Shown: piece by piece, positions 8,062 to 50,931 of the stretch
How positions within the stretch are numbered: position 1 is the first letter of the stretch
Layout: the number at the start of each line of letters is the position of its first letter
NCBI GenBank assembly: GCA_964350985.1
Contig: CAYGLK010000002.1
Span: 64,382-128,381, forward strand
Length of the DNA: 64,000 nt
From: an uncultured Candidatus Saccharibacteria bacterium
Lineage (GTDB): Bacteria > Patescibacteriota > Minisyncoccia > Phycocordibacterales > UBA918
Direction: 5' to 3'
Notes under the pieces: model-generated
Told to the model about the DNA's origin: nothing
What the model saw: only the letters and a program-made list of their open reading frames with translations
Database searches by the model: none
Translations under genes and position numbers: made by a program

Positions 8062-8147
8062 TGGAGAAGTGTCAGAGTGGTCTATCGTGCTTCCTTGCTA
8101 AGGAAGTGGGGTTCACGCCCCCGGAGGTTCGAATCCTCTCTTCTCCG
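8062..8147 (+). tRNA. tRNA-Ser, anticodon GCU (type II tRNA with long variable arm). Non-canonical 18-nt anticodon arm; no encoded CCA
   Basis: Acceptor GGAGAAG/CTTCTCC, T-arm GGAGG-TTCGAAT-CCTCT, variable arm GGGG-TTCACG-CCCC. Anticodon arm cttcc-ttgctaaa-ggaag has one extra nucleotide (8-nt loop, or 6-bp stem plus 6-nt loop). Confidence 0.75.
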
Positions 8148-8157
8148 CTTTTTGAAA

Positions 8158-8184: not shown

Positions 8185-8445
8185 AAGCGGAGAAGAAGAA
8201 AAGTGCTAAGGCACTTTTCGTGAGGATTCGAAGACCTTGCCTACTATTTTGTGACGCAAGGAAACAAAATAGTGACAAGGTGTACTGCCTATGTAATGGG
8301 AGAAATTCCTCTCTTCTCGTAACAGTCTGGGAGACTGTTACGTAGGATTCGAAAAGCTTTTGAGGTAGATTCGACCAGAGGGAGAATATATCCAAAAGGT
8401 ATACTGGTTGTGTAACAACCGAAATTCCTCTCTTCTCCGCGAATA
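8185..8445. repeat. tRNA-linked repeat array A: inverted copy of the tRNA-Ser 3' tail, then two degenerate tRNA-3'-half-like units
   Basis: aagcggagaagaag at 8185-8198 is the reverse complement of ctcttctccgctt (8137-8150). Two units each contain a hairpin, a T-loop-like GGATTCGAA and an acceptor-like end gaaattcctctcttctc(cg). Confidence 0.5.
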
Positions 8446-14992: not shown

Positions 14993-16309
14993 TTATCTTG
15001 TATAAGTAACGGCTCCTTCTGGACTAACTAGCTCAATTTTTTTAATTTGACTGAAGGTTTGATCAAATACATGCATTAAGCCATTGTTGATGCTCACAAA
15101 TTCATTTGTCTGACCATCAACCAAAACTGTTTTAACAGCTAAGAACCCTGAGCCTTTCAGTTCAATAAAATCTTCCGGCGAGTCAGTTACCCCGGCCATG
15201 ACACTGTCAATTTTTAAGCTGACAGTATTATTTATTACTGAGAAGGCTTCAGCTAAAAACAACTTTTCTCCATCGTAGTACAGAGTAATATCATAAGAGT
15301 CAGTATCAGTCGGAAGCTCAGCTCCTTCAATGGTCATCGCACCAGTACTTGTTACCAAAAACTCTACTTCCCTTTTATCAATCACTACTTTTTCAATCAC
15401 TGATAGAAAATCTCCCCTTAGAGTCAAACGAGTACCTGTTTGCCCCTGATCCAATACTTTAGGTGAAACTGAAGTCACGGTTACCTTTTGAGCTACTGGT
15501 TCTTCTGGCTTAATAGTATTAGTTGAATTATTTTCAATTGGCACAACCGGAGGATTTTCATTTTGAGTTCCCGATTGATTTGGGATTGGATCGACTAGGT
15601 TCACTTCAGCTTCAACTGAATCTTCAGTATTATCACCAGTTTCTGGATTGTGCTCGTAATACCAATCACCTTTATCTTTATCAGTAATATCCCGCACTTC
15701 TATTTTTCCATTCACATAAAGTGCAATCTTTCCTGCCGGAACAGCGATAGTAGAAGACTCATCAATTTCTCCAGTCTCTGGATCAATCAAACTTACCCAA
15801 ACAGTCCCTTCCGTAACTATTATCTGTGAAGCTGGTTCTGTGAGAACACCAAAAGAAGTTCCTCGCACTGCCGCTACCAGAGTTGGGGTGTGCACTTCAT
15901 AAACTTCATCTTGTTCTAAGGCTCGATTTATTTTAGTCCAGGTCTGCCCGGCTGCTAGTTTCAAAATAGTAGTGTTGTTATCTTGCCCCAATTCAACGAC
16001 CAGTTCTGAATTACTATTTAGTGAAGTTAAAATATCAGCATCCTGAGTCAAAATAGCTCGACCAACAGCTGAGGTTTTAACCTTGTTTCCGTTTACAACC
16101 TCTTGCGGAGTTTCAATAACTTGCCAATCAGATTCTTCAGCTGAGACAGAGACATCTGCAGACAGCGGTTGCAGCATTACAGCTGAGCCTGACTCCGTAC
16201 TAATAGCATTATCATCTAAAGTATCGTTTTTTGGTGTCGGTTCAATAAAAATTAGACCTAGTGTTAAAAGAATAATAATTACCGCCCCACCAATCACTAC
16301 TTTTTTCAT
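14993..16309 (-). CDS. Secreted FecR-domain protein with Ig-like C-terminal repeats
   Basis: 438 aa; signal/TM; FecR-like core YEVHTPTLVAAVRGTSFGV; 3-bp gap to the cyclase gene. Confidence 0.55.
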   Translation of the reverse strand: MKKVVIGGAVIIILLTLGLIFIEPTPKNDTLDDNAISTESGSAVMLQPLSADVSVSAEESDWQVIETPQEVVNGNKVKTSAVGRAILTQDADILTSLNSNSELVVELGQDNNTTILKLAAGQTWTKINRALEQDEVYEVHTPTLVAAVRGTSFGVLTEPASQIIVTEGTVWVSLIDPETGEIDESSTIAVPAGKIALYVNGKIEVRDITDKDKGDWYYEHNPETGDNTEDSVEAEVNLVDPIPNQSGTQNENPPVVPIENNSTNTIKPEEPVAQKVTVTSVSPKVLDQGQTGTRLTLRGDFLSVIEKVVIDKREVEFLVTSTGAMTIEGAELPTDTDSYDITLYYDGEKLFLAEAFSVINNTVSLKIDSVMAGVTDSPEDFIELKGSGFLAVKTVLVDGQTNEFVSINNGLMHVFDQTFSQIKKIELVSPEGAVTYTR

Positions 16310-16482
16310 AAAAAATACTTTAGCTGCTTTATTAATGGTTTGATTATATCATTTCTATAAATATTTGACTCAAATCTCTTAAAAAGTAGGGATGCCAAAC
16401 CTAAAACCAGGGCTTGGAATAAATGTCTTTTCCCTCTATAATAGGCGCTAACCACAAAAGTGGTGACAATTTGAACGAAGTG

Positions 16483-16634
16483 AATATATTGGAGGATTGG
16501 CTATGAAATCTAATTTGTTTTAGATTTCATCCGATCGTTCCCCAGAACGAATAATCGATGCTTTAGCGAGATTATAGGGAGGGTAACGAAGCCAATCCTA
16601 TCTAAGATCAGAGTGAATATATTGGAGGATTGGC
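16483..16634. repeat. 23-nt direct duplication (gtgaatatattggaggattggct) of the tRNA 5' end plus leader, with an inverted 10-nt copy (agccaatcct) in between
   Basis: Copies at 16483-16505 and 16612-16634; the inverted fragment sits around 16580. Confidence 0.55.
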
Positions 16635-16710
16635 TGAGTGGTTGAAAGCAGCAGTTTACTAAACTGCCGAACCTTAACAGGTTCCGAGAGTTCGAATCTC
16701 TCATCCTCCG
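16624..16710 (+). tRNA. Type II tRNA (Ser-class architecture) with apparent anticodon ACU (loop TTACTAA); unusual A34; no encoded CCA
   Basis: Acceptor GGAGGAT/ATCCTCC, D-loop AGTGGTTGAA, anticodon stem GCAGT/ACTGC, variable arm GAACCT-TAAC-AGGTTC, T-arm GAGAG-TTCGAAT-CTCTC. Confidence 0.65.
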
Positions 16711-16717
16711 CGAGTAC

Positions 16718-16748
16718 AAAAATAAGCACCTTTAGGTGCTTATTTTTG
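16718..16748 (+). terminator. Rho-independent terminator after the tRNA (aataagcacc-ttta-ggtgcttatt plus T-run)
   Basis: Perfect 10-bp stem with flanking A- and T-runs. Confidence 0.6.
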
Positions 16749-16750
16749 TT

Positions 16751-17150
16751 CGCGGAGGATGAAGAAAGCAAATAGTTTTGCTTTCTGTAGAGATTCGAAA
16801 GCCGCAGGCATGTCTGCAAGACAGCCGAGGCGGGGTCGAGAGTCCTTACTAGAATTAGAGCAAAGCGAATAATTATAGTTAGTAACTCGTGACCGAATTT
16901 CTATCTCTATACAACCCATTTAGGGTTGTTTTTATTTGTGCGAGCGAGAGGATGAGTAAGACGCCTGCGCGTCTTACGTAGAGATTCGAAAAGCGCAGCG
17001 ATGCCGGAGGCGAGCGAGTTGGGGTCGAGAACATTTAGTAGATTTGGAGTCGTAGACGAACAAATATACTTAATGATTCGTGACCGAATCTCCAACTCCA
17101 TACAACCCATTTAGGGTTGTTTTTATTTGTGCGAGCGGAGGATGAGAAAT
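16751..17150. repeat. tRNA-linked repeat array B: inverted copy of the tRNA 3' tail, then two tandem units of about 195 bp, each ending in the terminator-like module atacaacccatttagggttgtttttatttgtgcgagcg
   Basis: cgcggaggatga is the reverse complement of tcatcctccgcg (16701-16712). Units span about 16751-16946 and 16947-17137. Each has a hairpin, T-loop-like gtagagattcgaaagc, a GC-rich core and ccgaat + acceptor-like tail. Confidence 0.6.
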
Positions 17151-17163
17151 TTAAAAAAACAAT

Positions 17164-18177
17164 CTAACTATTCAGCTCTTTAGTTAAATCTTGCAACTCT
17201 TTATCAAGAGCACTTACCTCATCTTCCAGTCTATCCATCTGGTGCTGTGCACGTCTAATGATAGATAAGTTATTTCTTTTGGTGTTTTGAGCCGCAATAG
17301 CTAAGCTACCTGACTCCTTAAACTTTTGTTCCGTATCTTTTTCTTCTGTTTTTGCTGTTTCAATTTTAGCCTCCAACTCTTTTGCTTGCTGTTCTAATAA
17401 CTCAATTTGCTGACGTAACTCCTCCTCTTTTGATTTTCCGAAACTATCTACTTTTTTAGTTTCATTTTCAAGAAACTTCTCCCTAGAACTTTCATCACGT
17501 ATTTTTCGACGAATTTCTTCTTCTTGCCTAATCTTAGCTTCATTTATTCTCTCTCTAGCAGCAAGGGCATTTTTAAGACTCATCACATGCAGCTTCATTT
17601 TTTCAATTTTGTCTTCCTCTTGAACTACCTCTTGCCTCAGATCATTTATCTTGTCCGTCTCAATTGCTGTAGCTGACTCTTCAGTTGATAGATTATCTTG
17701 CAGTGATTTTATTTTTTTCTTTTGTTCCTTTACTAAATTCTCATCTTTCACTAACTCCGCCTGGTTTTGAGCAACTTTTGTCTCTTCTTGAAGCAAGGTC
17801 CTACTTAGTTCTTTTATTTTTGTGGTTATGCTCCGGTGTGAATTTTCTAAAGCCGAAATGTCTCTTTTTAAAGTTGGTAAGCTGTTTTTTGCAGTTGTCT
17901 TTTCTCTGTCAGCCTGTTCAGCTTTTGTCTCTTCTCGTTTATTATTTTCTACAAACTTATCAAACCTGGCTTTTAGTGAAAGAAGGTTAGCTTTTTTTGT
18001 ATTTAAGGAAGCTTTAACTTTAGTTATCTTCAGCTCGACATTCCGCTTGTGAAGTTTTTTCTTTTGCTCTTCTTGCAAACGAGCTTTTTCTAGTGCCGCT
18101 TTAGTTTCTGCTTCAGCTTCACGGCGTAATTTAGCACGACCTTCAGGTGTATTATGTGAGGGACTAGGAGCAAACAT
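17164..18177 (-). CDS. Lys/Glu-rich coiled-coil protein, function unknown
   Basis: 337 aa, almost entirely heptad-like charged sequence. Confidence 0.5.
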   Translation of the reverse strand: MFAPSPSHNTPEGRAKLRREAEAETKAALEKARLQEEQKKKLHKRNVELKITKVKASLNTKKANLLSLKARFDKFVENNKREETKAEQADREKTTAKNSLPTLKRDISALENSHRSITTKIKELSRTLLQEETKVAQNQAELVKDENLVKEQKKKIKSLQDNLSTEESATAIETDKINDLRQEVVQEEDKIEKMKLHVMSLKNALAARERINEAKIRQEEEIRRKIRDESSREKFLENETKKVDSFGKSKEEELRQQIELLEQQAKELEAKIETAKTEEKDTEQKFKESGSLAIAAQNTKRNNLSIIRRAQHQMDRLEDEVSALDKELQDLTKELNS

Positions 18178-26199: not shown

Positions 26200-28314
26200 G
26201 TGTTCCTTCACTTTTTTGAGAAGTACCATAAGTATCGTATAGTACCAATCATGAGAAAACATCGATTGTTTTACTATTTAGCTTTGGCGTTTGGATTGCT
26301 TATATTAGCTTTGTTGTATGCAAACAGCTTAAACAAGACATACCAGTCTCTAGCATCAAAATCAATTACTGACCGTCATGGAGTCCCGATTCTTTTGGAA
26401 AGAAATATCCATAAAAATTACGCACTCTACTCTGACAATTTCCCAAATAGATTAAAAGAACTGGTAGTTAAAAAAGAAGATCAGTATTTTTGGTATCACC
26501 CAGGAATCAATCCGGTAAGTATTTTAAGGGCGCTCTTTTCCAGTGTGAAAGACGGCACGGTAGACGGATCAAGTACTATTTCACAACAAGTTGCAAAAAT
26601 TCTACTCTTAAATACTAACGACCGTAACATACTAAACAAGCTACATGAATCCCTAGTGGCTTTGCTACTAAATTTGAGATACTCAAAAGATACCCTGCTT
26701 ACAATGTATTTAAACCTGGCATATCTTGGGAATGAAGCCCAAGGATTTGCCACTGCTAGCTATGTCTACTACGGAATAAATATTACTGAACTTTCAGATC
26801 CACAACTTGTATCATTATTGGCTACCTTAAGTAGTCCAACAGCTTCTCATCCTTGGACCGAAGCAAATAATGAACGAACGACTTATTGGTTAGAAAGACT
26901 AGATGTTTCTGGTGATGTTCCAAAAACAGAAAAACAAGAATTTTACTTTAATAAACCTTCGGTCTTTGAGTTAACTTCTCTTTTACCAACACCTTGCAAT
27001 AATCCTTGTCAGACCACCGTCGACGCATCTCTAACTGAGTCTATTCGTAGTCTTGTAAGTGAACACACCGACCAAACAAGATCTAAAGGAGGAACCAGTG
27101 CGGCGGTTGTTATTATTGACGCCAAGACTGGCCAACTACTATCTATCGTTGGCTCACCTGACCCTACTGGTAATTTTGAGGGAGCTCAAATAAATATGGC
27201 TATCTCTCCTCGTCCTACAGGATCAACAATTAAACCTTTTATCTATGCACTCGCCTTTGAATCAGGAGCTAGACCATATTCTTTAATTAACGATCGAGAA
27301 TATAAGTACCCTATCGGAACTGGCTATCCTCTCTATCCAAAAAACTTTGACGGAAAATACTCTGGTGAAGTTACGTTACATGAAGCACTGGCCAATAGTC
27401 TAAACACTCCGAGTGTTAGATTACTTGAATTTACAACTCTTGATTCTTTTTATAGTGTACTAGAAGATAAACTTGGTCTAACGCCAATAAATCCACTCTC
27501 ATCTTATGCATACGGTATTGCTTTAGGGGGGTTGGAAATAGACTTACTCACTCTAACTCATTTTTTTACCGTTTTTACTAACCATGGTGATCTTTTACCA
27601 TTATCCATACAACCTAAAAAAATAATTCCTGCTCCTTTGGCAAAAGAAATAAGTGACGAAAATGTGTTTACACCAGCTAGTATTGAACTTGTCACAAGTA
27701 TTTTGACTGACAGACAGGCTGGTGTCGAACAGTTTGGCATTAAAAGTACCTTAGACGTTTTTAATAAAACCGTCGCCGTTAAAACTGGTACCTCTCGAGA
27801 TTTTCACGATAGTTGGACTATTGGGTACACCCCTGATTATATCGTTGGAGTTTGGCTGGGTAATCCAGAAAACAAACCTCTGGACAAGATTTCTGGTGCT
27901 GCTGGAGCAGGTGCACTATGGCGTAAAGTAATAGAACGTTTGAACACAACTAAATACAACACTAATACACAATTTATTTATGAAGAGACTGAGTTAATTA
28001 ATATTGAAGGTAATTCTTATAGATCGATACCAGACGAAATTCCCCAGGAACATCGTTCTCTATTGCTAGATAAACAAATTATTCTATTACCTCACCATGG
28101 AGATAGTTTTTTATTTAGAGAAGGTGATGTAATTACATTTACTAGCGATCAAATCTCTACCTGGAAAGTGGACGGATATATTGTAGGTCAAGGTAAGACG
28201 GCCAACTGGCAACCAGCAATGCCGGGAGTATATGGAGTCAGTGCTACTACAGAGGATAATAAAGAGGAGGAGATCACTATTGAAGTAGTCGCTGATGCTA
28301 CTTTACTACCGTAA
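26200..28314 (+). CDS. Class A penicillin-binding protein (glycosyltransferase GT51 plus transpeptidase); start may be 26251
   Basis: GT51 motif GSSTISQQVAKIL; transpeptidase STIKPF (SxxK), SLN, KTGTS. The 3' end overlaps the convergent alpha-2-macroglobulin gene by 17 bp. Confidence 0.8.
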   Translation: MFLHFFEKYHKYRIVPIMRKHRLFYYLALAFGLLILALLYANSLNKTYQSLASKSITDRHGVPILLERNIHKNYALYSDNFPNRLKELVVKKEDQYFWYHPGINPVSILRALFSSVKDGTVDGSSTISQQVAKILLLNTNDRNILNKLHESLVALLLNLRYSKDTLLTMYLNLAYLGNEAQGFATASYVYYGINITELSDPQLVSLLATLSSPTASHPWTEANNERTTYWLERLDVSGDVPKTEKQEFYFNKPSVFELTSLLPTPCNNPCQTTVDASLTESIRSLVSEHTDQTRSKGGTSAAVVIIDAKTGQLLSIVGSPDPTGNFEGAQINMAISPRPTGSTIKPFIYALAFESGARPYSLINDREYKYPIGTGYPLYPKNFDGKYSGEVTLHEALANSLNTPSVRLLEFTTLDSFYSVLEDKLGLTPINPLSSYAYGIALGGLEIDLLTLTHFFTVFTNHGDLLPLSIQPKKIIPAPLAKEISDENVFTPASIELVTSILTDRQAGVEQFGIKSTLDVFNKTVAVKTGTSRDFHDSWTIGYTPDYIVGVWLGNPENKPLDKISGAAGAGALWRKVIERLNTTKYNTNTQFIYEETELINIEGNSYRSIPDEIPQEHRSLLLDKQIILLPHHGDSFLFREGDVITFTSDQISTWKVDGYIVGQGKTANWQPAMPGVYGVSATTEDNKEEEITIEVVADATLLP

Positions 28315-31300
28315 ACTCACCACTTGCAGTTCGACCGAAAAATTCTGGGTTATACAACTCTCCTACCCAAACCGGTAGGTGTTGATACTGTCCTGGAACC
28401 AAAGTGCGCAAGTAATACTCGTAGACATAAGTACCTGGATCTAAACTTTCCTGGAAGACAAAAATACGGTCATCATGTAACTCTTCAGTACCACCTCTAA
28501 AAGCTCGTGTATATTGTCGACGGTTTGGTTTCAAAGCTTCTTTCTCATCTTTATAAACATCAACAGTTTCTAATGCAGCAAATTCACCAGTTGACATAAA
28601 GGCAGCGACATCAAACTTATTTTCTGCCTGTACCTTCGCAGCTGACTTGATCGCAGCATCAAGCACGATTTTATTCTCAGTAGAATAATCGAAGTTAATA
28701 ATTTCAAAACCAGCTGGAATCTTATCTTCAATAGCCATCATACGCATCGGAGAACCAATAGAGAAAGTTATGCGGCCCAAAACAGTATCACCTACTGTTG
28801 CTTCTGTGAGTGGGTTTTGTTTATCTATGTCATCCAAGGCAAAGAATTCACGAGTAACCTGCACACCTTCATCTCGACCAGGTAATACTTCACGATCAAG
28901 ATAGTACTTCATCTCAATATCGTAATAAATTGTATTATTTTGTCGTGCATCCGCTTCTACTTGAGTAAATGTAAAGAGATGTTCTTCACCTAAACCTAAC
29001 TCATCAAAGGTCAAAAGTTTAGATAGTCCTTCAAGTTTTGGTTGTAGTTCAGTGTTATGAGTTGCGATTATTTCACCATCTAAAAGAGCAGTTATCACTG
29101 TGCGTGCTCCTGATTCACCTTTCCACTCAATATAATCTGTAAGTGTCTGCACTACAACATGAGTAGTATTAGTTGTACCCCAAGCACCATCAAACTGTCG
29201 CTCTGACAAAAGCCAATCTACAATCTTTGGCGCCAAATCTGTCTCACGTTCTTGAGTAGTAATTGCTCTTAGAAGAATCGCTGTGTTTGCCATGTCAGTT
29301 TCGTAAAAACTTTTAGCAAAACTTACTGAGCTACGACTAATATATATACCGTCATTATTTTCGCGCAAACGGCGTTCTATTTCATTCCAGACTGTATAAC
29401 GATCCCAGAACCATAGCTCGTCTGACAAAAGTGCAGCATAAACAAGTGAATGAGTACTGAAATTTCGGATCGCTTTACGTGTAATACTTTTTCGTAGTTC
29501 TGAAACTCCTACATCAACTGCCCGTGGTCGCGGATCAATCTCTTTTAAGGTTACTAACCGTGTAGTCAAATAATCCATCTTCCAAGAACTATCTACTATA
29601 CTGTCTTCATTAAACCTTCTACTCGCAACTGTACCGGCAAATTTCTTTGCTTGGTTTAAGACATCCTCGTCTATTTCAATGCCATATTTTTCGAGTGACA
29701 ATAAAACAGACAATACATGTAGCGACAATGACACATCAGAACGCAATCCTCGATAATATCCAAAACCACCATCTCTTGCTTGTGATTCATAAATTTGTTT
29801 AAGACCTTGCTGAAGTGCTTCGTTTACTGAATAGGTATTATTATTGAATTCAACTGTTTCTAGTCGATATTCAGACCCCAATCCTTCAAGAGAAGTTAAG
29901 TGACTGATTGTTGCTAAGGTAGCTAGTTTACTAGCTAGTTGCTCGCTACATCCATAAGGATATGCTGCCATATAATTTAGTGAGTCTTCAAGGTAGGCTC
30001 CGACTGTGCCAAAAGCCTTAACTGTGACACCACCTAATTCTTGATGAATTTCAGTCGGGGTAAAAATCTTTTCTTCAATCAACTCACCGCTGGTTTGAGC
30101 TCCACGGAAGACTGTTTCATACAAAGTGTTTTCCACCACCGGAATCTGCTTACGGACAGAGTCTTCAAACAAACTGTTGCCGGCCACAAATAATACTTCA
30201 TGAGATCCGCCTAATATACTTCTTGGTGCTTCAACATCAAAGAACAAACGTTTAGATCCTTCAGCTGGAATAGTTACAGTTTGTGGCTTTCCTACCAGAA
30301 CCAATGAATCACTCTCTATGGTAAAGGTAATAGTTTGCGAGACTTTAGTACGATTAAGAACTTCCGCTCCAAGCGATAATTTATCACCTGGAACTAAGAA
30401 TCGAGGATAAAGCGGCGTCATTATTAAATCTTTTTTCTCTTCAAATTCCATATAATTGACACCTACTTTAGTATCCTTTGTGATACCAATAGTTTCTACT
30501 TGCCACCGTGTTAGGTTATCTGGCAATGTAAACTTAACAGTTGCTCGTCCGTTTGAGTCAGTTACAACATCGGCTGCCCAGAAAGCTGTATCTTTGAAGA
30601 CACCACGTTCACGCTTTGCCAAATCAACTCCTCCATCTCCTCCTTTAGTACCTGTTGGAATTTCAATTTCTTCATGGACAAATTTTAAATTAGAACTTGT
30701 TATCACATCGTGACTGAATCGGTTGTAGAAAAAAGCCAGTGGATCTCTTTTTGGATTACCTTTAAGAGCTAAGACACTCAAGTCGACTGCTGCAATAGAT
30801 ACTTCTGCCGGAACTGGAAGACCATCGTTATTTTTTGTTTCCACCTGCAAAGTAACCTCTTCCCCAGGCAGGTATGCTTTTTTGTTACTGATTACATTTA
30901 TATCGAGGTTGTATACATCATGGTCAATTTGATAATATACTTCTCCATACTTAACAGATGGCTCAGAAGAAATCAGGGTCACTGTCACAACCACGTTTGG
31001 AGAGTGATCCTTTTTAGCCACAAAGTCATAGTCGAAGAAATTTGCATCCACATCAATGACTTCATACTCCATCACACTTCCTCGCTCAACAGTAACTAGT
31101 GCCTTTGCTTTTTGGTACGGAGACTTAATAATTAACTTACTAGTTTGACCAACAGCTAAGTCAACTTCATCTACAGCGATGTCTAATGTTCTATCGTTAT
31201 TTCTTCTAACTGGCACTGCACCTTTACCGTAAACATACTGAGACGCGCTTGCTAAATACGGATTACCACGCTCATCTACACCAGATAACCGCAAAATATA

Positions 31301-34300
31301 TCTCCCAGCTTTATCAAAGGTAAATGGCAGCTCTAACAGACCATTTTGATTGGTTGTCACCTCTGCGTCAAAAACAGGTACTTCAATCTCTTCTGAGTGC
31401 ACATAGAAACTACCGTCAACTTCACGTCGTTCAAACTGTTTCCAATCTTCCCGTACAATCTCCATATTTACTTTTCCTGGACGACCGACTCCTTCAGTAT
31501 CAACAGTTCGAATTTCAATTATGTTGCTCTCACCAACAGCGCTAAAGTGATCTAATGTTCGTACCGCGCCGTAAAGCATAGCTCGGTGAACAATGAAAGA
31601 AGCCTGGGTAGAAACACTCCGACCACTCGCATCTTTAACAGTGGCGTTGATAACGAAAATTTTACTTGTATTAGAATTTTCCTCGTCTTCAAATAATTTA
31701 TTAAAATCAAGTTCAGTTAAAATGTTAGCCACTCCATTTTCTAGAGGTACTTCCCCTCTAGCAACAAACTGATCGTAATACCCACACTGGCTACAGTATT
31801 CATCAAAAGAACCATATCGAAAACGCCTATCATTTCCTTTATCAAAATAGTAATTTTGTGTTGTGATAGCGTAGGAAACAGTACCTTCAGCTACCGGAGC
31901 ACCAAAGAAATAATCTGCTGATACAATAACATCAAGTGTTTCTCCGGCGACATATTCATCGCGTTGCGATGTTGCCTTCACTTCAAACGGAGATGGGGTA
32001 TATTCTTCAACTGAAAAATAAGAGTACCCCACGTTGTAACCGGACCAAGTCTGAGCATGAATACTGTAACTACCTAAGGGTGCATTTTCTGGTAAAACTA
32101 ACTCTGCTGCAACAGTTCCGTATTCAGACAAACTGGTTGAAGTTGAAAAGATTTGACCACCTGGCCCACTAACCGTAACCGTAACTATCCGGTCAGCAAA
32201 GATTTCGTACTTGGCGTCATATCCAATTCGGTGCAATCCTTTAATGAAAACTTCATGTCCAGGCCGATAGATTGGCCGGTCAGTATAAAGATACATTTGT
32301 TCAATTTCATGCACTGCCCCAGAAGAACTGATTGTGTCAGCCCAACTACTAACCATAGCTGAGTCATCACCACTTATTACATAAGCTCCAACAGCATCAG
32401 CAACTGTTTTAACCAAACCTACTCCATCTTCATTTGTTACCACTGTTGCAGCTCGCTCAATAAGCACTTTATTTCCTGGTGCTGTATCACGATAAACTGA
32501 AATCTGAGCTCCTTCGACAGGATCTAAAGTTGAAAGATTACTTACCCAATATAGACCTGAGCCAGCACCGTCTCTAACAATACCGGTTTTACGATCAGTA
32601 ACTTCTTCACTATTAAGATCAAATTGATTAGTTCTTTTTTCTACCAAAGACAAATTAGTCACACTTGTATACATGTGATCAAAATACTGTCGTTCAGTAT
32701 TTTTCTTAAACTGATAATCAGAATATTTCAGCTCTGGATGAGTCACTGTGATAACGTAGTGCCCTTTCACATTATTAAAGTATTGTTGCAAATCAAGTTG
32801 CACATAACTAGTCCCAGATGGGTTTGAGAGATCTATACGTCGATCTTGTCTTTCAAGACAATTGCTCGGCGCCTCTTGTCCACGACCCAACTCACCACCA
32901 ATGCGAAGCATTTCTTCTGGAGATAATTTACAAATAGTTAAATCAATATAATCAATGTTTCCAAAACTATAGGTAAAAGCGGTACGGTCTGGAGTTGTCA
33001 CCTCGTAACGTTGATGTAGATTTTTCATCCAAGCAACCTTTTTTATTTCAGTTACCACTGGCTTTACTCTTTCTGGAGTACGGAAAGATGTTTCAGTGCT
33101 TAACTGATTTCCAAAAACATCTTCCGGGGTTAGCTTAATTACATAATCCGTTTCCGGCAACAAGCTAAACTGAACCGTTGTCTTAAAAGAACCGGCACAG
33201 AGTGGTTGTGATTGAAGCGGTAAAAGTGTTTCGTAAGGGGTTACAAAAGATGAAATTTCAGATCTACTAAAAGAGTATATTGGTTGTTCGGTTTGAAATA
33301 GATCTTTGTAATTTAAAGAACGATATTCAATAATTGGATTTGACGAGCAAACTGTAAGACTTCTATCTTCACTACCTGCAGTTGGTATAACTTCTGTAAT
33401 TACTAATGGTCCAACTGTTTTAAACTTAACCTCTTCCTTAACATCAGCGATTCGAACACCATCGAGATCAAAGAAATCACTGATTGTAAGCGTGTAGTCT
33501 TTAGCAAGCTCTAACTGTTCACCCACAAAAGAAACTTCAACGACCGAATCATTGTACCTATTACAAACTGGATCATAGGCTTCGCATAGACTTTGATACT
33601 TTACTGTTGCTACAGATCGACCAACGCCACTTATAGTTAACTTATCTTTATCAACCGGTTGTGAGAAGTACAAACGTATGACACCTTGAGGATCAAAGTA
33701 ATCACTTCTTACTTCACGACTCCGTTGCGAATATACATCGCTTCTCATCAAAAGATTCGCCACTGTACTTGTTGCTCTGATATCTGGGGATGTCAAAGTC
33801 CCTTCTGTCGGACGAATATTTGTGACTGTGTAGCTTATTGATTCACCAAAAAACCATCGGGCTTCATTTTCTACTGGTCTAACTATAACGGTACTACGAT
33901 CTATTACGTTCTCTTTTTGTTTTAGGTCAGGGTTATAGGTTAAGCTGCTGTCATACTCCAAGGTAACTGGTATAGAATTATTATCCTTATTCACCACTGC
34001 AATCTCCATATCTTCTATTGATACAGGCTGATTAAATGAAAAACGAAGTGGATCTTGAGCCCGTAAGTTACCACGAGAGTACTCAGTCGTTCTCAATCTA
34101 TTCACGGTAAAATTATATTCTTCTTTAGGTACTTGTAGACCATCAACTGAATAAAATCCTTCTCCAACTGTTACTGTATAATCTGACGACCTAGTTAATC
34201 TTTTGGCAGGAATAAATTCTAGCTGTCTTTCACTAGCCCACACAAAAGAACCTTCTGTAGGTGGTGTAATAGTGATCGGGACATCTATTTCATAGTCTCG

Positions 34301-35386
34301 ATCTAGAGCCTGTAGCGGTACCATTGGCCTATTAAAGGTAAAGGTCAAAATAGTTTCCTCGCTGACATTTCCAACATTTAGATTTGGTTCAAACAAATCA
34401 ATCTTGGGACGCTGCACAGCCCGGAAGCGCTTTTCACTAATTGAACCGTCAGAATTTTCGTAAGATAAAGTATAAAAATTATTCTCTTCTAGCGGTTCAC
34501 TTAATTTAAAAACAATATAATCAGGTGATGTTGTCCTTCCCCACCAAGTACTAATACTTGGATCAAAATCAACATTAAATCGAGACAAGAATTTGCCTTC
34601 ACCTTCAGGTAAACGAACAACAATTGGACCATCAAGAGGAACTGTATCGCGGATTAATTGATAATCGTTACGTAACTCGTCAGGAGTTAGTGTGACTGGC
34701 CGAGTGATAATCCAAGTAAAGTAAGCTAGTGCGCCAAGTAGTAGTATGAATAACGCTATATAATGATTTTGTCTAAACTTTTTACTTAGACTGAAATTCC
34801 TCCACCACCATCTGATAGGTAGCAGGAGAAAATGCAGTACAATCTTTCCCTTCGCAAACAGAACATTAAGAAAGACTAAGTTTATCTTTGGAACTGAGAC
34901 CTCTTCGGTAGATCCTTTTGTTAGTTCATTAAACTGGATATTACGACTATATAAACCGTGTACTATTAAATAATAGATTCCTATACTCAAGAAAAATGGT
35001 AATAAGTAGAGTACGTACGAGAAGATAAGGGTTAAGGAAAAGCCTTTCGCTATACTTTTAGAAACAACATCATAGATAAACAATAAACTTCCAGCCAAGG
35101 CCAGAAGACAAACAAGCGCCTGAGCGATATAGAGACCTAGTCGAATACGACGATATTTACCTATTTTTACTGATCCTTTAATGACAAACAATTGATATAA
35201 CGGAGTCAATGAATATTTACTAGACAGAATAATAATAGCAATCCAATAGATGGCTGGTATAAGGGAGCTACCAGTGTAGCTAAAAACTCTTTCAATGGTT
35301 AATGAACTATTAACCAAGGTCATCAACACCAAAGCTGAACCGACAAGTACTGCCGGATGAGACCAAGTAAAGAGGAGGCGAAACAT
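28298..35386 (-). CDS. Giant (2362 aa) membrane-anchored alpha-2-macroglobulin-family protein (bacterial A2M/YfhM-like)
   Basis: N-terminal TM segments; thioester-type motif YPYGCSEQ; size and beta-rich repeat organisation consistent with the A2M family. Confidence 0.7.
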   Translation of the reverse strand: MFRLLFTWSHPAVLVGSALVLMTLVNSSLTIERVFSYTGSSLIPAIYWIAIIILSSKYSLTPLYQLFVIKGSVKIGKYRRIRLGLYIAQALVCLLALAGSLLFIYDVVSKSIAKGFSLTLIFSYVLYLLPFFLSIGIYYLIVHGLYSRNIQFNELTKGSTEEVSVPKINLVFLNVLFAKGKIVLHFLLLPIRWWWRNFSLSKKFRQNHYIALFILLLGALAYFTWIITRPVTLTPDELRNDYQLIRDTVPLDGPIVVRLPEGEGKFLSRFNVDFDPSISTWWGRTTSPDYIVFKLSEPLEENNFYTLSYENSDGSISEKRFRAVQRPKIDLFEPNLNVGNVSEETILTFTFNRPMVPLQALDRDYEIDVPITITPPTEGSFVWASERQLEFIPAKRLTRSSDYTVTVGEGFYSVDGLQVPKEEYNFTVNRLRTTEYSRGNLRAQDPLRFSFNQPVSIEDMEIAVVNKDNNSIPVTLEYDSSLTYNPDLKQKENVIDRSTVIVRPVENEARWFFGESISYTVTNIRPTEGTLTSPDIRATSTVANLLMRSDVYSQRSREVRSDYFDPQGVIRLYFSQPVDKDKLTISGVGRSVATVKYQSLCEAYDPVCNRYNDSVVEVSFVGEQLELAKDYTLTISDFFDLDGVRIADVKEEVKFKTVGPLVITEVIPTAGSEDRSLTVCSSNPIIEYRSLNYKDLFQTEQPIYSFSRSEISSFVTPYETLLPLQSQPLCAGSFKTTVQFSLLPETDYVIKLTPEDVFGNQLSTETSFRTPERVKPVVTEIKKVAWMKNLHQRYEVTTPDRTAFTYSFGNIDYIDLTICKLSPEEMLRIGGELGRGQEAPSNCLERQDRRIDLSNPSGTSYVQLDLQQYFNNVKGHYVITVTHPELKYSDYQFKKNTERQYFDHMYTSVTNLSLVEKRTNQFDLNSEEVTDRKTGIVRDGAGSGLYWVSNLSTLDPVEGAQISVYRDTAPGNKVLIERAATVVTNEDGVGLVKTVADAVGAYVISGDDSAMVSSWADTISSSGAVHEIEQMYLYTDRPIYRPGHEVFIKGLHRIGYDAKYEIFADRIVTVTVSGPGGQIFSTSTSLSEYGTVAAELVLPENAPLGSYSIHAQTWSGYNVGYSYFSVEEYTPSPFEVKATSQRDEYVAGETLDVIVSADYFFGAPVAEGTVSYAITTQNYYFDKGNDRRFRYGSFDEYCSQCGYYDQFVARGEVPLENGVANILTELDFNKLFEDEENSNTSKIFVINATVKDASGRSVSTQASFIVHRAMLYGAVRTLDHFSAVGESNIIEIRTVDTEGVGRPGKVNMEIVREDWKQFERREVDGSFYVHSEEIEVPVFDAEVTTNQNGLLELPFTFDKAGRYILRLSGVDERGNPYLASASQYVYGKGAVPVRRNNDRTLDIAVDEVDLAVGQTSKLIIKSPYQKAKALVTVERGSVMEYEVIDVDANFFDYDFVAKKDHSPNVVVTVTLISSEPSVKYGEVYYQIDHDVYNLDINVISNKKAYLPGEEVTLQVETKNNDGLPVPAEVSIAAVDLSVLALKGNPKRDPLAFFYNRFSHDVITSSNLKFVHEEIEIPTGTKGGDGGVDLAKRERGVFKDTAFWAADVVTDSNGRATVKFTLPDNLTRWQVETIGITKDTKVGVNYMEFEEKKDLIMTPLYPRFLVPGDKLSLGAEVLNRTKVSQTITFTIESDSLVLVGKPQTVTIPAEGSKRLFFDVEAPRSILGGSHEVLFVAGNSLFEDSVRKQIPVVENTLYETVFRGAQTSGELIEEKIFTPTEIHQELGGVTVKAFGTVGAYLEDSLNYMAAYPYGCSEQLASKLATLATISHLTSLEGLGSEYRLETVEFNNNTYSVNEALQQGLKQIYESQARDGGFGYYRGLRSDVSLSLHVLSVLLSLEKYGIEIDEDVLNQAKKFAGTVASRRFNEDSIVDSSWKMDYLTTRLVTLKEIDPRPRAVDVGVSELRKSITRKAIRNFSTHSLVYAALLSDELWFWDRYTVWNEIERRLRENNDGIYISRSSVSFAKSFYETDMANTAILLRAITTQERETDLAPKIVDWLLSERQFDGAWGTTNTTHVVVQTLTDYIEWKGESGARTVITALLDGEIIATHNTELQPKLEGLSKLLTFDELGLGEEHLFTFTQVEADARQNNTIYYDIEMKYYLDREVLPGRDEGVQVTREFFALDDIDKQNPLTEATVGDTVLGRITFSIGSPMRMMAIEDKIPAGFEIINFDYSTENKIVLDAAIKSAAKVQAENKFDVAAFMSTGEFAALETVDVYKDEKEALKPNRRQYTRAFRGGTEELHDDRIFVFQESLDPGTYVYEYYLRTLVPGQYQHLPVWVGELYNPEFFGRTASGEFTVVK

Positions 35387-36876: not shown

Positions 36877-36949
36877 CCGCCTGTAGCTCAGTTGGTAGAG
36901 CGCAGAGCTTATACCTCTGTGGTCCTTGGTTCGAGTCCAAGCGGGCGGA
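36877..36949 (+). tRNA. tRNA with anticodon UAU (loop CTTATAC), putatively tRNA-Ile(UAU); no encoded CCA
   Basis: Acceptor CCGCCTG/CGGGCGG (one G-U), TAGCTCAGTTGGTAGAGC D-arm, anticodon stem CAGAG/CTCTG, T-arm CTTGG-TTCGAGT-CCAAG, discriminator A. Confidence 0.7.
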
Positions 36950-36955
36950 CTGGCG

Positions 36956-37021
36956 TAAAATAAAACTGACAATTGTTAACAATTGTCAGTTTTATTTTAG
37001 TTAGCAAACTTTTTTGCTAAC
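36956..37021 (+). terminator. Double terminator: 44-nt perfect palindrome taaaataaaactgacaattgttaacaattgtcagttttatttta, then hairpin gttagcaaa-ctttt-ttgctaac
   Basis: Perfect palindromes read directly. Confidence 0.6.
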
Positions 37022-37165
37022 GGCGCCAGTCCGAGCCGCAGCGCTGCGAACTAGTGAGCCGCGAGGCGGGATCGCGAACACTTAGTATATTTGGAGTGGT
37101 CGAACAAATATACTTAGTGATTCGTGATGACTGAATGTTTTAAATTTATATTCCTACTGGTCCTT
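37022..37165. repeat. tRNA-linked repeat C: inverted copy of the tRNA 3' trailer (cgccagtccg), then one unit homologous to array B; contains a perfect 15-bp AT-rich hairpin
   Basis: Hairpin is cacttagtatatttg / caaatatacttagtg. About 70 nt align with 17040-17110 of array B. Followed by the terminator aaaaagaacaacg-tcta-acgttgttcttttt (37170-37200). Confidence 0.55.
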
Positions 37166-45071: not shown

Positions 45072-45464
45072 GGGGATGCTAGGCATCGACGGTTAGCCTA
45101 CCCATTATGTGCAGTGTCGAAATTGGAATCAATTCGTTAAAAGGTTCCATCTGTATTTGCAAACAAGCCAATACCAAGTCCTTACGCTAACGCGTTTGGA
45201 TTCGCTCCCGCTCTAGCGTAACCATTCGCCTAGACCCGGATCGATGCGATCGTACTAAACGCCTCATACAGTACGATTCGTAGAATAGCCACGAGGCTGT
45301 GGACTTAAGTGTCGTTGTCGCTTAAGTTCAAGATTGTCACAACTCGAGTAATTGTTGTTTTGTCTCTTCTATAGACAGTTACTTTAAATCAAAGGAGAAA
45401 CTACACACTGTAGATTCATGATGAGTACCTGATTCGGACGGGGTTTCGATTACCCCCATCTCCA
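45072..45464 (+). ncRNA. ssrA: tmRNA (ssrA), one-piece; tag ORF 45159-45221 encodes ANKPIPSPYANAFGFAPALA
   Basis: 5' end GGGGATGCTAGGCATCGACGG (tmRNA-like start); 3' tRNA-like domain GGGGT-TTCGATT-ACCCC plus acceptor CATCTCC pairing with GGGGATG. GCA resume codon in ...tttGCAAAC..., tag ends ALA-TAA. Adjacent to smpB. Confidence 0.7.
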
Positions 45465-45469
45465 CTCGC

Positions 45470-45563: not shown

Positions 45564-45602
45564 TTTATAAATAAATTGTCCTTTTCACTCGGAGGTGATG
45601 CT

Positions 45603-45983
45603 ATGGGATCTAACGCACGTGCTGACATTTGGGTCGGCATCAAGTTTGATGGCTTCTTCGATAGGAGCGAGTTCGTTGATTTTCTCGACACCACGCAGAT
45701 GTCGGAGGATGAACGTTATGAAATCCTGAACGGGCGCCCTGGCGCTCAAGGAGCAGGAACAATGGTGGGAGAGGATGTCTACGACACCTTCACCTGCTGT
45801 GACGACATGAAGGGCTTCGGCGTCAAGTTGCTCTGGCACGACTGGGACTTCGAGCCGAAAGTGCTCGACTTCAGCCAGCTAGCAAAACAAACGGAAGCGC
45901 TCAAAAAGCGAGTTTCTCAGGTCTTCCAGAAATGGGGTATCCAGGAAGAACCGCATGCGTATCTCCACACCGACTATCGCTGA
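45603..45983 (+). CDS. GC-rich hypothetical protein (126 aa from the RBS-supported start), unknown function, likely foreign origin
   Basis: Strong SD GGAGGTGA; codon usage markedly GC-rich versus neighbours; followed by two-tier hairpin plus cttttctttttt (45993-46043). Confidence 0.5.
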   Translation: MGSNARADIWVGIKFDGFFDRSEFVDFLDTTQMSEDERYEILNGRPGAQGAGTMVGEDVYDTFTCCDDMKGFGVKLLWHDWDFEPKVLDFSQLAKQTEALKKRVSQVFQKWGIQEEPHAYLHTDYR

Positions 45984-48167: not shown

Positions 48168-48171
48168 CATA

Positions 48172-48207
48172 TAAAAAAACAAGCGGCCCCGGGGGACCGC
48201 TTGTTGA
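48172..48207. terminator. Bidirectional terminator (aaaaaaa-caagcggcccc-ggg-ggaccgcttg-tt) between convergent genes
   Basis: GC-rich hairpin with an A-run on the left, which is a T-run for the minus-strand operon. Confidence 0.55.
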
Positions 48208-48226
48208 ACAAGAGCAAAAAGAACGT

Positions 48227-49432
48227 TTACAGCTGACCTTTGTCGCGGGAACCGATACCGCCGCCCCGTCCAGACACACCCGCGGTATCGAGTCGATCCC
48301 ACGGAATCATCGCACCGAGCTGATAGAGAGCCACGATGTACTGCAACTCAGCCTGCCCGGCGGTGACGTTCTGGAACTCGATGATGCCGAGCGCAAATTG
48401 CTTCAGGTTCCGCTCGAGTCGCGGATAGTCAGAAGACACCGCCACTCCCAGCGTGCGCAACATCTGCTCGCGATTGGCCGCGCCCACCTGAGCGGGGAGC
48501 GACGGGTTCTCGAGCACCTTGCGGATCTGCTGGGCGTCATACGCCAGCGCCATAGCGACCGGCATTCCGGTACCAGCGAACACGTAGTTGATGTCATTCA
48601 CAACACCATCAGCCGCATCACGCAGTACCTCAGCGGGAGGCGGTTGCATCATCCCCGGAGGAACGATCCCGCCAGCCCCGCCAGCCAAAGCACTCAGCAT
48701 GCCGACCATGGCGGCCGGATTGCTCATCCCCTGTTGCCAGGCGTCGACCCACTGCTTCAGCTGCTGCTGATACGAGTTCAGCGAGCCCCAGAGACGATTG
48801 TTGATTCGGCCCAAGAGCGCGGCCTTGCGCGCCTGGGTGGCGAAGCGACCGTCGACGCCGGGCATGGCCGCAAAAATCTCGGCGTAGCTCCGGCGGGTCA
48901 GAAGGGCCTGCAACTGGTAGTAGTCGTCACCGACAGGTTCTTGGAGCGATTCCGCCTGACGCTCCATCGCCAGACCGATCTTTTCGGGAAGGTCGAAGAG
49001 GCCAAGACGAGCCGCCAGAGCAGCGCTCACGGTACCGGTGACAGTCTCCTTGTTGAACCTGAGAACGCCACCAACCTTGAGAGCATTGAGCCAGGCTTCG
49101 TCCGAAGGGACGGCCGGCAAGACATCGAAGGTCGCCGCACTCATCGCCGGTACCGCGGTTTCGCTAGCGGCAGGTGCCGGAGCGATTTCACGGAGGCCAG
49201 CAATGGCCTTGGCCAACTTCGCCTTGGGAGCGCCGTCGCCCACCGCCGCACCGATATCGGTGTCGGGAGTGAACTCGCGATCCTTGAGGAGACTGATTGC
49301 TTCATCGCCCGGTTCACCGACCAAGCCCTTCAGCGCAGCGGTGATTTCCTCGACGCTCTTTCCGAGCGCAGTGGCAAACGGGGTGATGTAAGCGACCCAA
49401 CCTTCAGGAAGGGTGATGGTTGTATCATTCAT
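48227..49432 (-). CDS. GC-rich hypothetical protein (401 aa), last gene of the GC-rich operon; no recognisable motif
   Basis: Long ORF with high-GC codon bias; Ala/Gly/Gln-rich low-complexity stretches. Confidence 0.55.
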   Translation of the reverse strand: MNDTTITLPEGWVAYITPFATALGKSVEEITAALKGLVGEPGDEAISLLKDREFTPDTDIGAAVGDGAPKAKLAKAIAGLREIAPAPAASETAVPAMSAATFDVLPAVPSDEAWLNALKVGGVLRFNKETVTGTVSAALAARLGLFDLPEKIGLAMERQAESLQEPVGDDYYQLQALLTRRSYAEIFAAMPGVDGRFATQARKAALLGRINNRLWGSLNSYQQQLKQWVDAWQQGMSNPAAMVGMLSALAGGAGGIVPPGMMQPPPAEVLRDAADGVVNDINYVFAGTGMPVAMALAYDAQQIRKVLENPSLPAQVGAANREQMLRTLGVAVSSDYPRLERNLKQFALGIIEFQNVTAGQAELQYIVALYQLGAMIPWDRLDTAGVSGRGGGIGSRDKGQL

Positions 49433-49476
49433 GACTTCTCTCCACGTAGATGCGGGTTTTGCCCGCGGGTTGTATT

Positions 49477-50865: not shown

Positions 50866-50931
50866 AAAACCTCCCAGTCATTGTGACCGCAAGTGTGCAG
50901 GACTCTCGTCCTGCACACCTTTACGGCAAGT

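Follow-up and report, generated by a model that had tools for sequence, protein, structure and literature searches.

What are the repeats that crowd the tRNA-Ser(ACU) gene of an uncultured Candidatus Saccharibacteria bacterium, and how did they come to carry copies of the ends of that very gene? We addressed this question in a stretch of 64,000 nucleotides (nt), positions 64,382 to 128,381 of contig CAYGLK010000002.1 (assembly GCA_964350985.1), which we refer to as the window and whose coordinates are used throughout. A preliminary description had presented the locus, here called locus B, as a duplicated tRNA 5' segment followed by a local tandem repeat of two units of about 195 bp, each ending in a terminator-like module. 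The repeats belong to a family of conserved, structured modules that are associated with tRNA ends and are independently gained and lost. With modest confidence, we read locus B as a tRNA-Ser(ACU) gene colonised by three non-coding cassettes, one on its 5' side (16503-16611) and two in tandem on its 3' side, which are non-autonomous and mobile and recombine into tRNA ends while rebuilding the gene. We infer that the cassettes encode a structured RNA, and how they integrate and what this RNA does are likewise inferred.

Anatomy of the tRNA-Ser(ACU) locus

To describe the locus, we denote by T the tRNA-Ser(ACU) segment 16693-16711, which runs from C56 in the T-loop to one nucleotide past the discriminator. 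Inverted copies of such a tRNA end are called T' (in two parts, a and b), displaced direct copies T~, and the conserved hairpin hp. D and I numbers are families of direct repeats and inverted pairs. The parts of locus B are as follows.

16414-16442, + strand: promoter-like site (TTGGAA, 17 nt, TATAAT) that precedes the whole tRNA unit; consensus scan, pattern match only
16479-16502, + strand: distal copy (D~) of the 24-nt repeat, 12 nt of leader plus tRNA nucleotides 1-12, the displaced 5' tRNA fragment (family D3, 100% identity)
16503-16611, + strand: inserted 5'-side element with an 11-bp hairpin (16503-16530, pair I4), a core of ~60 nt and the anti-fragment AGCCAATCCT
16612-16635, + strand: proximal copy of the 24-nt repeat (family D3), the last 12 nt of which are the functional tRNA start
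16624-16711, + strand: tRNA-Ser, anticodon ACU (ARAGORN; Rfam tRNA, 56.9 bits), CCA not encoded
16712-16750, + strand: term1, terminator-like palindrome, the centre of a palindrome of ~30 bp per arm that reaches into T and T' (pairs I2, I3)
16751-16762, + strand: T'a1, reverse complement of acceptor 3' strand, discriminator and trailer (pair I3; no mismatch when compared with the reverse-complemented acceptor strand)
16763-16786, + strand: hp1, conserved hairpin at the acceptor/T-stem boundary (pair I10; helix 1 of the family)
16787-16799, + strand: T'b1 (gtagagattcgaa), reverse complement of T-loop and T-stem 3' strand (pair I5)
16800-16893, + strand: core of unit 1 with P2, variable P3 and the long AT-rich hairpin P4, near variant V2, ending in ..CTCGTGAC
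16894-16908, + strand: T~1 (cgaatttctatctct), degenerate direct tRNA 3'-end copy, sequence read against T
16909-16939, + strand: termX1, hairpin plus T tract resembling an intrinsic terminator, first part of the 38-nt module
16940-16955, + strand: T'a2 (gcgagcgagaggatga), degenerate inverted tRNA tail (families D5, D6)
16956-16977, + strand: hp2, positioned as hp1, with a different stem sequence (compensatory)
16978-16990, + strand: T'b2 (gtagagattcgaa; pair I6)
16991-17084, + strand: core of unit 2, variant V1 (covariance-model match 16955-17095, 137 bits, E 6e-30)
17085-17099, + strand: T~2 (cgaatctccaactcc), degenerate direct tRNA 3'-end copy, compared with T
17100-17130, + strand: termX2, terminator-like hairpin plus T tract
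17131-17145, + strand: T'a3, inverted tRNA tail with no core after it (family D5)
17164-18177, - strand: open reading frame (ORF) of 337 amino acids (aa), neighbour of the array

Read along the + strand, the 3' side thus runs from T through term1, T'a, hp, T'b and a core of ~95 nt to T~ and a terminator, repeats this order once and closes with a final T~, terminator and T'a.

On the 5' side, the duplication is genuine and exact, and at 24 nt (16479-16502 and 16612-16635) is one base longer than the 23-mer first reported; the inverted 10-mer noticed with it, AGCCAATCCT, lies at 16590-16599 (inverted pairs I8 and I9). What had been missed is that this duplication bounds a separate insert, which belongs to a recurrent 5'-side family. 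The distal copy sits in the ancestral leader context common to two orthologous loci, L048 and L050 (L numbers denote fetched loci), in both of which tctataat occurs at a place matching that of the promoter-like site of locus B.

On the 3' side, an objective repeat finder recovered the two units and the start of a third as in-register families, namely D1 (81 nt, 88% identity, spacing 191), D2 (35 nt, 74% identity), D4 (26 nt, 85% identity) and D5, in which GAGGATGA occurs three times at spacings of 193 and 190 and accounts for the beginning of the third unit. Tandem Repeats Finder, which had been proposed as a check, does not report the array because its units are only ~75-88% alike. The inverted copies of the tRNA tail correspond to pairs I1, I3, I5 and I6. 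As described earlier, each unit combines an inverted tRNA tail with a hairpin and a GC-rich core and ends in a terminator-like module. This 38-nt module has exactly two copies in the window, where none is expected by chance, and holds the sole two terminator-like sites called within 16300-17300 (16911-16929 and 17102-17120, + strand). By pattern match only, it conforms to an intrinsic (rho-independent) terminator, with a GC-containing hairpin at these positions and the T tract TTTTTATTTGT. The array, described earlier as filling the intergenic space, stops at 17145, 18 nt short of the stop of the 337-aa ORF.

While this anatomy and the link to the tRNA stand, the preliminary description has to be revised on the local tandem repeat, the composition of the unit and the nature of the 5' duplication. 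The two cores are not local repeats of each other. They represent different variants of a single motif with a wide distribution in Patescibacteria, V1 in unit 2 and a sequence close to V2 in unit 1, and the 38-nt terminator block is the only part identical between the units. Each unit further contains a degenerate direct copy of the tRNA 3' end that had been overlooked (16894-16908 and 17085-17099); in well-preserved members of the family, the position of T~1 holds an exact 16/16 copy of the tRNA end. Therefore, the natural unit is tRNA-end copy, terminator, inverted copy and core, with the inverted copy usually interrupted by hp where acceptor stem and T-stem meet. We also observed that the 38-nt blocks (16909-16946 and 17100-17137) are 100% identical, whereas the adjoining 15-nt tRNA-end copies differ at ~5 positions and the core variants differ as well. 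Judged from this pattern, the identical blocks point to a possible local gene conversion or duplication step.

The locus is predicted to be highly structured. Both units fold far better than their shuffles (z of -5.65 and -5.27), and the region 16686-16800 folds at -69.7 kcal/mol (z -14.3) into one long hairpin made of T, term1, T'a and T'b, from which hp branches off. gtagagattcgaa is the reverse complement of the tRNA T-loop plus T-stem. The hairpin that precedes it was mapped by hand in the window, L014 and L016; it lies within 1-2 nt of the boundary between acceptor stem and T-stem, and in these loci hp and T' together with T or T~ yield a tRNA-like three-way junction.

The tRNA itself is noteworthy. 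tRNA-Ser(ACU), i.e. with A34, is kept in many Patescibacteria (window, L048, L050, L097 and L110-L169) beside a normal tRNA-Ser(GCU) (8063-8148 in the window), and an unmodified or inosine-34 serine tRNA for AGY codons would be unusual in bacteria. With a pattern that included the anticodon loop, the same type was recovered at 60 metagenome loci.

A structured family at tRNA ends of Patescibacteria

How far does the motif extend beyond this genome? A degenerate core pattern of 27 nt matched 108 stretches from 66 assemblies of a species-representative genome collection, all labelled Patescibacteria or candidate phyla radiation (CPR) with the sole exception of a 2-kb contig binned as Gammaproteobacteria. 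The taxon labels are those deposited, and several 'Saccharibacteria' labels may be generic, since L050 is syntenic with a Kaiserbacteria contig. At least 56 of the 116 pattern matches have a same-strand tRNA no more than 200 nt upstream, typically at 135-175 nt, with all isotypes represented. A hidden Markov model (HMM) and a covariance model gave ~150 matches across the fetched loci. Among the 129 evaluable matches of this kind (type I), 75 follow a tRNA, 17 another unit and at least three a tmRNA. Two follow a group I intron (Rfam Intron_gpI; L069 1652-1910 and L058 3498-3745) at places where ARAGORN sees no tRNA, and these introns probably sit inside intron-containing tRNA genes. A few units follow the end of a protein-coding gene (L083, L095), to which their T' is complementary. 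Seen from the side of the RNA genes, 89 of the 130 tRNA and tmRNA genes in the fetched loci have a type I or type II array downstream on the same strand and none on the opposite strand, while 41 have no unit. The association with tRNA genes implied by the preliminary description is thus very strong genome-wide, and a distribution unrelated to tRNAs can clearly be dismissed.

Rfam 15 at gathering thresholds reports only tRNA and tmRNA in the window, and a search of 16300-17200 at E values up to 10 returned nothing credible over the units and no known ribozyme. Two carrier genomes have matches to LOOT RNA (RF03000; L103 7825-7943 and L064 7558-7674), which lie away from the cassettes. We found no description of such elements in the literature searched, the coverage of which was incomplete, and a prior description is possible. 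As a side observation, the only contig with the exact 337-aa neighbour protein (L001, Logan contig ERR3534985_98159) ends 56 nt past that gene, i.e. at the array edge, and for 12 of 61 metagenome matches to tRNA-Ser(ACU) the available sequence extends less than 350 nt from the tRNA start. It appears that short-read assemblies are broken by the cassettes.

Such elements accompany each of the three tRNAs of the window, whereas the tmRNA has none. The additional loci are:

8063-8148: tRNA-Ser(GCU) (ARAGORN, Rfam)
8187-8441, + strand: locus A, two tandem type II units after tRNA-Ser(GCU) (type II HMM matches 8225-8300 and 8346-8421)
36877-36950: tRNA-Ile(UAU) (ARAGORN, Rfam)
36999-37139, + strand: locus C, one type I unit after tRNA-Ile(UAU) (covariance model, 115.3 bits)
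45072-45467, + strand: tmRNA (ARAGORN, Rfam), whose unoccupied 3' end is an empty site for the element family

The covariance model finds only three type I copies in the window, scoring 115-137 bits on the + strand, whereas the reverse strand never exceeds 27 bits; unit 1 of locus B is matched at 16763-16904 (136.2 bits, E 9e-30). Locus A follows the type I plan (T'a, hp, CGT, T'b, core, T~) with a different core. This type II core (GACCTTGCC, a hairpin, then GACAAGGTGTACTG-stem-TGTAA-stem) constitutes another widespread motif, matched 43 times by its HMM in the fetched loci; it is also found 5' of tRNAs and, in L013, L093, L104 and L107, as a fused part of composite type I units. At locus C, T' (37022-37033) is complementary to the last nucleotides of tRNA-Ile plus trailer. 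A tRNA-Ile with a UAU anticodon is uncommon in bacteria, most of which read AUA with a lysidine-modified CAU tRNA.

To assess the structure of the core, we aligned 72 type I members (alignment A2, with unit 1 of locus B as row 1), derived an RNAalifold consensus and used a shuffled alignment and slid partners as controls. The predicted motif of ~140 nt consists of hp (9 bp), P1 (formed by T' and T~), P2, the base of a variable-length P3 and the long AT-rich hairpin P4. Compensatory changes were found in 24 of the 35 predicted pairs, including all nine of hp (helix 1). Standard pairs are formed in 94.9% of cells compared with 74.2% in the shuffled and 31-36% in the slid controls, and the covariation score is 0.56 as opposed to 0.18 and 0.06-0.09, respectively. 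Compensatory change in excess of both controls is the general mark of a structured RNA. P4 occurs in two main discrete variants, V1 and V2, which by hand comparison are four double substitutions apart and keep the same U.U and G.A mismatches as well as the same bulged A; about a quarter of the aligned members mix features of both. The unpaired purine-rich junctions (GAAAG, CGAG, GGGG) are nearly invariant, one G.U pair is kept in 68 of the 72 sequences, and G.U pairs outnumber A.C pairs by 119 to 34. The signature is that of a selected single-stranded structure on the tRNA-sense strand, and RNA is more likely to be the selected form than folded single-stranded DNA. A minus-strand gene, as might be read from ORFs of 51-73 aa across the units, was rejected in view of the variable-length helices in the alignment and the strong + strand specificity of the model. 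A simple scan for the closing helix P1 proved too noisy for use.

We then asked how closely the flanking parts follow the adjacent tRNA. In the best-preserved copies (16 of 56), the sequence that follows ..GTGAC reproduces 16 nt of the adjacent tRNA, C56 to the 3' end, with at most one mismatch, and the repeat at times runs a few nucleotides into the trailer. A second subclass, which includes locus C, has its duplicated and complementary segment further downstream, where it covers the last few nucleotides of the tRNA and ~8-10 nt of trailer. T and T' are complementary in nearly all cases (mean run of 13.6 nt, compared with 8.0 for permuted partners), whereas complementarity of T' and T~ is less well kept (8.9 and 7.0). 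Direct copies of the tRNA tail occur only downstream of tRNAs, never upstream. At the tRNA-Ala locus L073, the inverted copy is the complement of the 3' strand and does not reproduce G3.U70, which marks T' as a genuine inverted copy of that strand; a pseudo-tRNA or a copy of the 5' acceptor strand is thereby ruled out. Cores that are 92% identical stand behind tRNA-Thr and tRNA-His of different genomes with entirely different T', and sharing a tRNA does not make the cores of different genomes more similar (0.61 at the same tRNA, 0.64 at different ones). Therefore, the tRNA-matching parts are set by the site while the core is shared, and homing of tRNA-specific lineages can be discarded. Cores of the same genome are slightly more alike than others (0.69 compared with 0.63, ~2 in 1000 permutations).

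These properties could also be those of a host-beneficial structured non-coding RNA, a ribozyme or the scaffold of a ribonucleoprotein, that is co-transcribed with the tRNA, docks on its 3' end or trailer and serves 3' processing, quality control or insulation, with changes in copy number as ordinary gene turnover. Strong covariation with conserved unpaired nucleotides and a conserved G.U pair, strict co-orientation with the tRNAs, a T' complementarity to the tRNA end that outlasts the displaced copy T~, and the tRNA-like three-way junction that hp at the acceptor/T-stem boundary forms with T~ would all be at home in such an RNA. Moreover, the tRNA genes inspected (the three of the window and fetched examples) do not encode CCA and hence need endonucleolytic 3' processing. 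We nonetheless consider this explanation rather doubtful: the 41 of 130 tRNAs without units in carrier genomes, the units behind protein-coding genes, the terminator-like hairpin between tRNA and unit and the lack of any match to a known ribozyme or RNA family at E values up to 10 are difficult to reconcile with it, as are the comparisons of orthologous loci described in the following section.

The 5' side of tRNAs carries a mirror family. In the fetched loci, 17 of 129 tRNAs have their first 12 nt copied with at most one mismatch 91-211 nt upstream, where ~0.08 would be expected by chance. The inserts have related cores that align and share a loose plan of a long hairpin, CCGNTC, CGATGYTTA and AGGAGGRC, often with an anti-fragment; some contain type II cores. 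In the window, the fold of the 5' element (16491-16611) is closed by pairing of fragment and anti-fragment (-42.9 kcal/mol, z -5.1). L125 and L050 form a clean pair of occupied and empty site, the difference being an insert of 93 nt and a duplication of 27 bp. In L125, the copy proximal to the tRNA has a leader like that of the window lineage and unlike that of L050. This donor-type leader indicates that the L125 element came with its own tRNA segment and donor flank by recombination inside the tRNA. The repeat does not look like a target duplication produced by staggered cuts.

Could such copies arise with no dedicated machinery and no function at all? In fold-back template switching during replication or repair, a terminator hairpin would prime a reverse copy (T'), and the strand would switch at TTCGAA into a core elsewhere and back. 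The near-perfect T/term1/T' palindromes with the terminator loop at their centre, the presence at both core junctions of TTCGAA, a T-loop motif that is itself palindromic, and tRNA-matching parts that follow the site with cores common across sites are what this process would leave behind. It gives no account, however, of purifying selection on a complex covarying core in 66 assemblies, of the recurrent placement of hp at one boundary, of a 5' family with donor-type flanks or of the spread over deeply diverged lineages. Hence, we regard template switching as an improbable origin of the units.

Gain, loss and a possible route of integration

Comparison of related loci allowed us to follow individual units. 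L048 and L050 are orthologous tRNA-Ser(ACU) loci, and L048 has one extra unit on the tRNA-proximal side. This unit is of another subfamily, with a different terminator, a different core and no hp, and its T' matches this tRNA. When L048 is compared with locus A of the window, a 340-aa ORF lies between tRNA and unit in L048, and an extra unit is found in the window instead. Cassettes enclose ORFs in L094, L048 and L040; besides the 340-aa protein (serine-hydrolase-like, as read from the sequence by eye), proteins of 198 aa and 164 aa are encoded.

A further empty and occupied pair is provided by the tmRNA, the flank of which in the window is 90.7% identical to L107. In L107, this flank and its terminator are directly preceded by a degraded duplicate of the tmRNA 3' end (3 of 24 positions mismatched), and that in turn by a composite type I element, within which the contig stops, so that the tmRNA itself is not seen there. 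The shared stretch includes a 135-aa ORF without Pfam match directly after the tmRNA terminator (45576-45983), though the two genomes are otherwise only ~70-75% identical where comparable.

In L158, a syntenic relative of locus B, the 5' element is present and there is no 3' unit. Here, the tRNA is followed after 16 nt by cgaggaggtgagaaa, a degenerate inverted tail, and by a flank similar to that of the window, much like the last partial unit of locus B. T~2, termX2 and T'a3 resemble this unoccupied state, and the outermost part of locus B looks like a remnant of the original tRNA end and terminator.

To obtain a view that does not depend on the presence of units, we turned to the 60 metagenome loci, which were chosen by the tRNA alone. 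Arrays are present at 25 of 46 tRNA-Ser(ACU) loci, in seven compositions, and a 5' duplicate at 24 of 49, with all four combinations of 5' and 3' occupancy. As judged from these comparisons, units are gained or lost one at a time at orthologous tRNAs and stack into mixed arrays. Occupancy of only about half of the orthologous genes with highly variable array content, together with the ability to enclose ORFs, is not what a host-beneficial RNA would lead us to expect.

Under our preferred reading of mobile cassettes, a cassette would enter by Campbell-like recombination of its own tRNA-end copy with the chromosomal tRNA gene, with a crossover between the T-loop (the D-loop on the 5' side) and the gene end. 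The gene would be rebuilt from the copy brought by the cassette, and the old end would be pushed outward and decay. Since no recombinase gene is linked to the units, an enzyme would have to act in trans, or homologous recombination would follow DNA uptake. The forward and inverted tRNA-end copies would form a long hairpin, an image of the target folded as a duplex, on which mobility would depend. Where transcription reads through, the inverted copy may pair with the displaced fragment and close the cassette into a self-contained domain, which could not compete with folding of the real tRNA, would be harmless to it and would end in its own terminator.

Several points weigh against this reading. 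The case for mobility comes from comparative presence and absence; no circular or free form was seen, and no copies were found on viral contigs or in phage and plasmid records. No recombinase, transposase or reverse transcriptase is linked to the units among the ORFs of the 108 loci or the window ORFs scanned. How both tRNA copies are retargeted to a new tRNA with the core nearly unchanged is left unexplained by the model. Presence of the element was the criterion by which most of the loci were picked. Once the conserved G.U pair is removed, G.U pairs exceed A.C pairs only modestly (51 to 34). Transcription of the cassettes is a prediction, and the terminator-like term1 stands in front of them. 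Finally, the conserved unpaired junctions and G.U pair suggest an RNA with a function of its own, which the cassette account leaves open.

We put forward a more specific version tentatively as a possibility: the units may be a new class of self-targeting mobile RNA or DNA modules, tRNA-anchored and specific to Patescibacteria, in which the core is a scaffold that recruits a trans-encoded enzyme and the inverted copy a programmable guide (RNA or single-stranded hairpin) that is re-templated from the new site at each move. Such a guide would steer insertion to any conserved RNA-gene end that it matches, so that targeting would be coded at the level of RNA or of a hairpin.

The window contains further features of note. 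A block of 57-58% GC at 48000-52000, compared with a genome GC of ~39%, begins ~3 kb past the tmRNA; it holds ORFs without Pfam match and a divergent adenylosuccinate-synthetase-like ORF, with no integrase by Pfam, and was probably acquired horizontally. An ORF of 2362 aa occupies 28298-35386 on the - strand, and 58919-61885 encodes a 988-aa single-polypeptide restriction-modification enzyme with Type ISP C-terminal and N6-adenine methylase domains.

Known mobile systems and implications for Patescibacteria

Which known system do the cassettes resemble most? Like integron cassettes, they are small promoter-less modules in co-oriented arrays beside a fixed platform. Many have no ORF and a few carry a single accessory ORF, array content varies between close relatives, and the extra unit is platform-proximal in the one informative pair (L048 and L050). 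Each module has an imperfect long hairpin of which the structure rather than the sequence is kept, as in attC sites. Both systems thus form arrays of modules that share one orientation, were gained independently and in some cases hold a single ORF. However, the platform here is the end of a tRNA or tmRNA gene and not attI, the arms of the hairpin copy the end of the tRNA next to it, the flanking repeat is 12-27 bp of tRNA sequence, and most modules consist of one conserved structured core instead of diverse cargo. Of the attC core sites R'' (RYYYAAC) and R' (GTTRRRY), no GTTRRRY was noticed by eye at the boundaries, whose junctions read ..GTGAC|CGAAT... No intI gene lies nearby; no recombinase family recurs among the ORFs of the 108 loci (8-kb windows), and none occurs among the window ORFs scanned.

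The target is that of tRNA-targeting islands, prophages, integrative and conjugative elements and their cis-mobilisable derivatives, which also insert into the segment from T-loop to 3' end of a tRNA or tmRNA, keep the gene intact with a replacement end, leave the displaced end as a direct repeat and accrete in tandem. As in such islands, a direct repeat of the tRNA 3' segment flanks the insert. In contrast, the units measure 0.1-0.25 kb instead of many kb, carry an extra inverted copy of the target, use all tRNA isotypes with one common core and have a mirror family at the tRNA 5' end and D-loop. No tyrosine or serine integrase stands at an end of the insert; the inserts of 140-250 nt have no ORF, and the rare enclosed ORFs are those of 198, 340 and 164 aa. 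One might still view the units as decayed att scars, the residue of prophages or ordinary integrase-bearing islands that entered and left tRNA genes over and over. Islands of this type typically show a directly repeated tRNA 3' end and accrete in tandem beside the tRNA, which fits this view, as does the block of 57% GC located 3 kb past the tmRNA. Yet the units are uniform (~140-190 nt) with a conserved covarying core and not random remnants, no integrase is near any of the 108 loci, viral contigs and phage records contain no copies, and inverted tRNA copies are foreign to att scars; we therefore deem this origin very improbable.

Miniature inverted-repeat transposable elements (MITEs) and repetitive extragenic palindromic doublets forming hairpins (REPINs) are non-autonomous hairpin repeats mobilised in trans, e.g. 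by RAYT transposases. They share with the units that they are short, non-coding, multi-copy and intergenic after genes, with no linked enzyme gene, and that they form long imperfect hairpins with compensatory changes between discrete variants (here V1 and V2). The strict tRNA-end target and orientation and a multi-helix core with conserved junctions set the units apart. In place of family-specific terminal inverted repeats and a short fixed target-site duplication, T' and T~ differ per locus and match the adjacent tRNA, and the duplications span 12-27 bp.

A structured scaffold combined with a separately evolving, target-complementary segment is also found in the IS110 bridge RNA, the omega RNA of IS200/IS605 and the exon- and intron-binding sites (EBS/IBS) of group II introns. 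Here, however, the matching segment is a duplicate of the target and is accompanied by a forward copy of it, sizes and structures differ, and there is no Rfam match. Whereas the RNA of IS110 and IS605 lies inside an element that encodes a recombinase or TnpB, the units adjoin tRNA and host genes directly, and no recombinase, TnpB or intron-encoded protein is next to any copy in the 108 loci. TIGR arrays of the TIGR-Tas systems consist of 36-nt units with alternating repeats of 8-12 nt and 9-nt dual spacers beside a Nop-domain Tas gene (PMC12045711). They can be ruled out, as the units here measure ~190 nt with one conserved core and no Tas gene is nearby.

The genomes of Patescibacteria are among the smallest and most streamlined in bacteria. 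Despite this streamlining, folded modules of ~0.1-0.25 kb adjoin many of their tRNA genes, on one side or on both. If the core is a functional RNA, it would constitute a large and well-supported new RNA family (72 members aligned, ~150 matches). If the modules are mobile, they would have found a route into essential, universally conserved genes without breaking them, in which a spare gene end is brought along and the displaced piece is neutralised by pairing; tRNA ends would then offer a natural, gene-sparing landing platform able to carry cargo genes between species. Either way, the elements explain frequent assembly breaks beside tRNAs in metagenome-assembled genomes of Patescibacteria and merit modelling in the tRNA and non-coding RNA annotation of these genomes.

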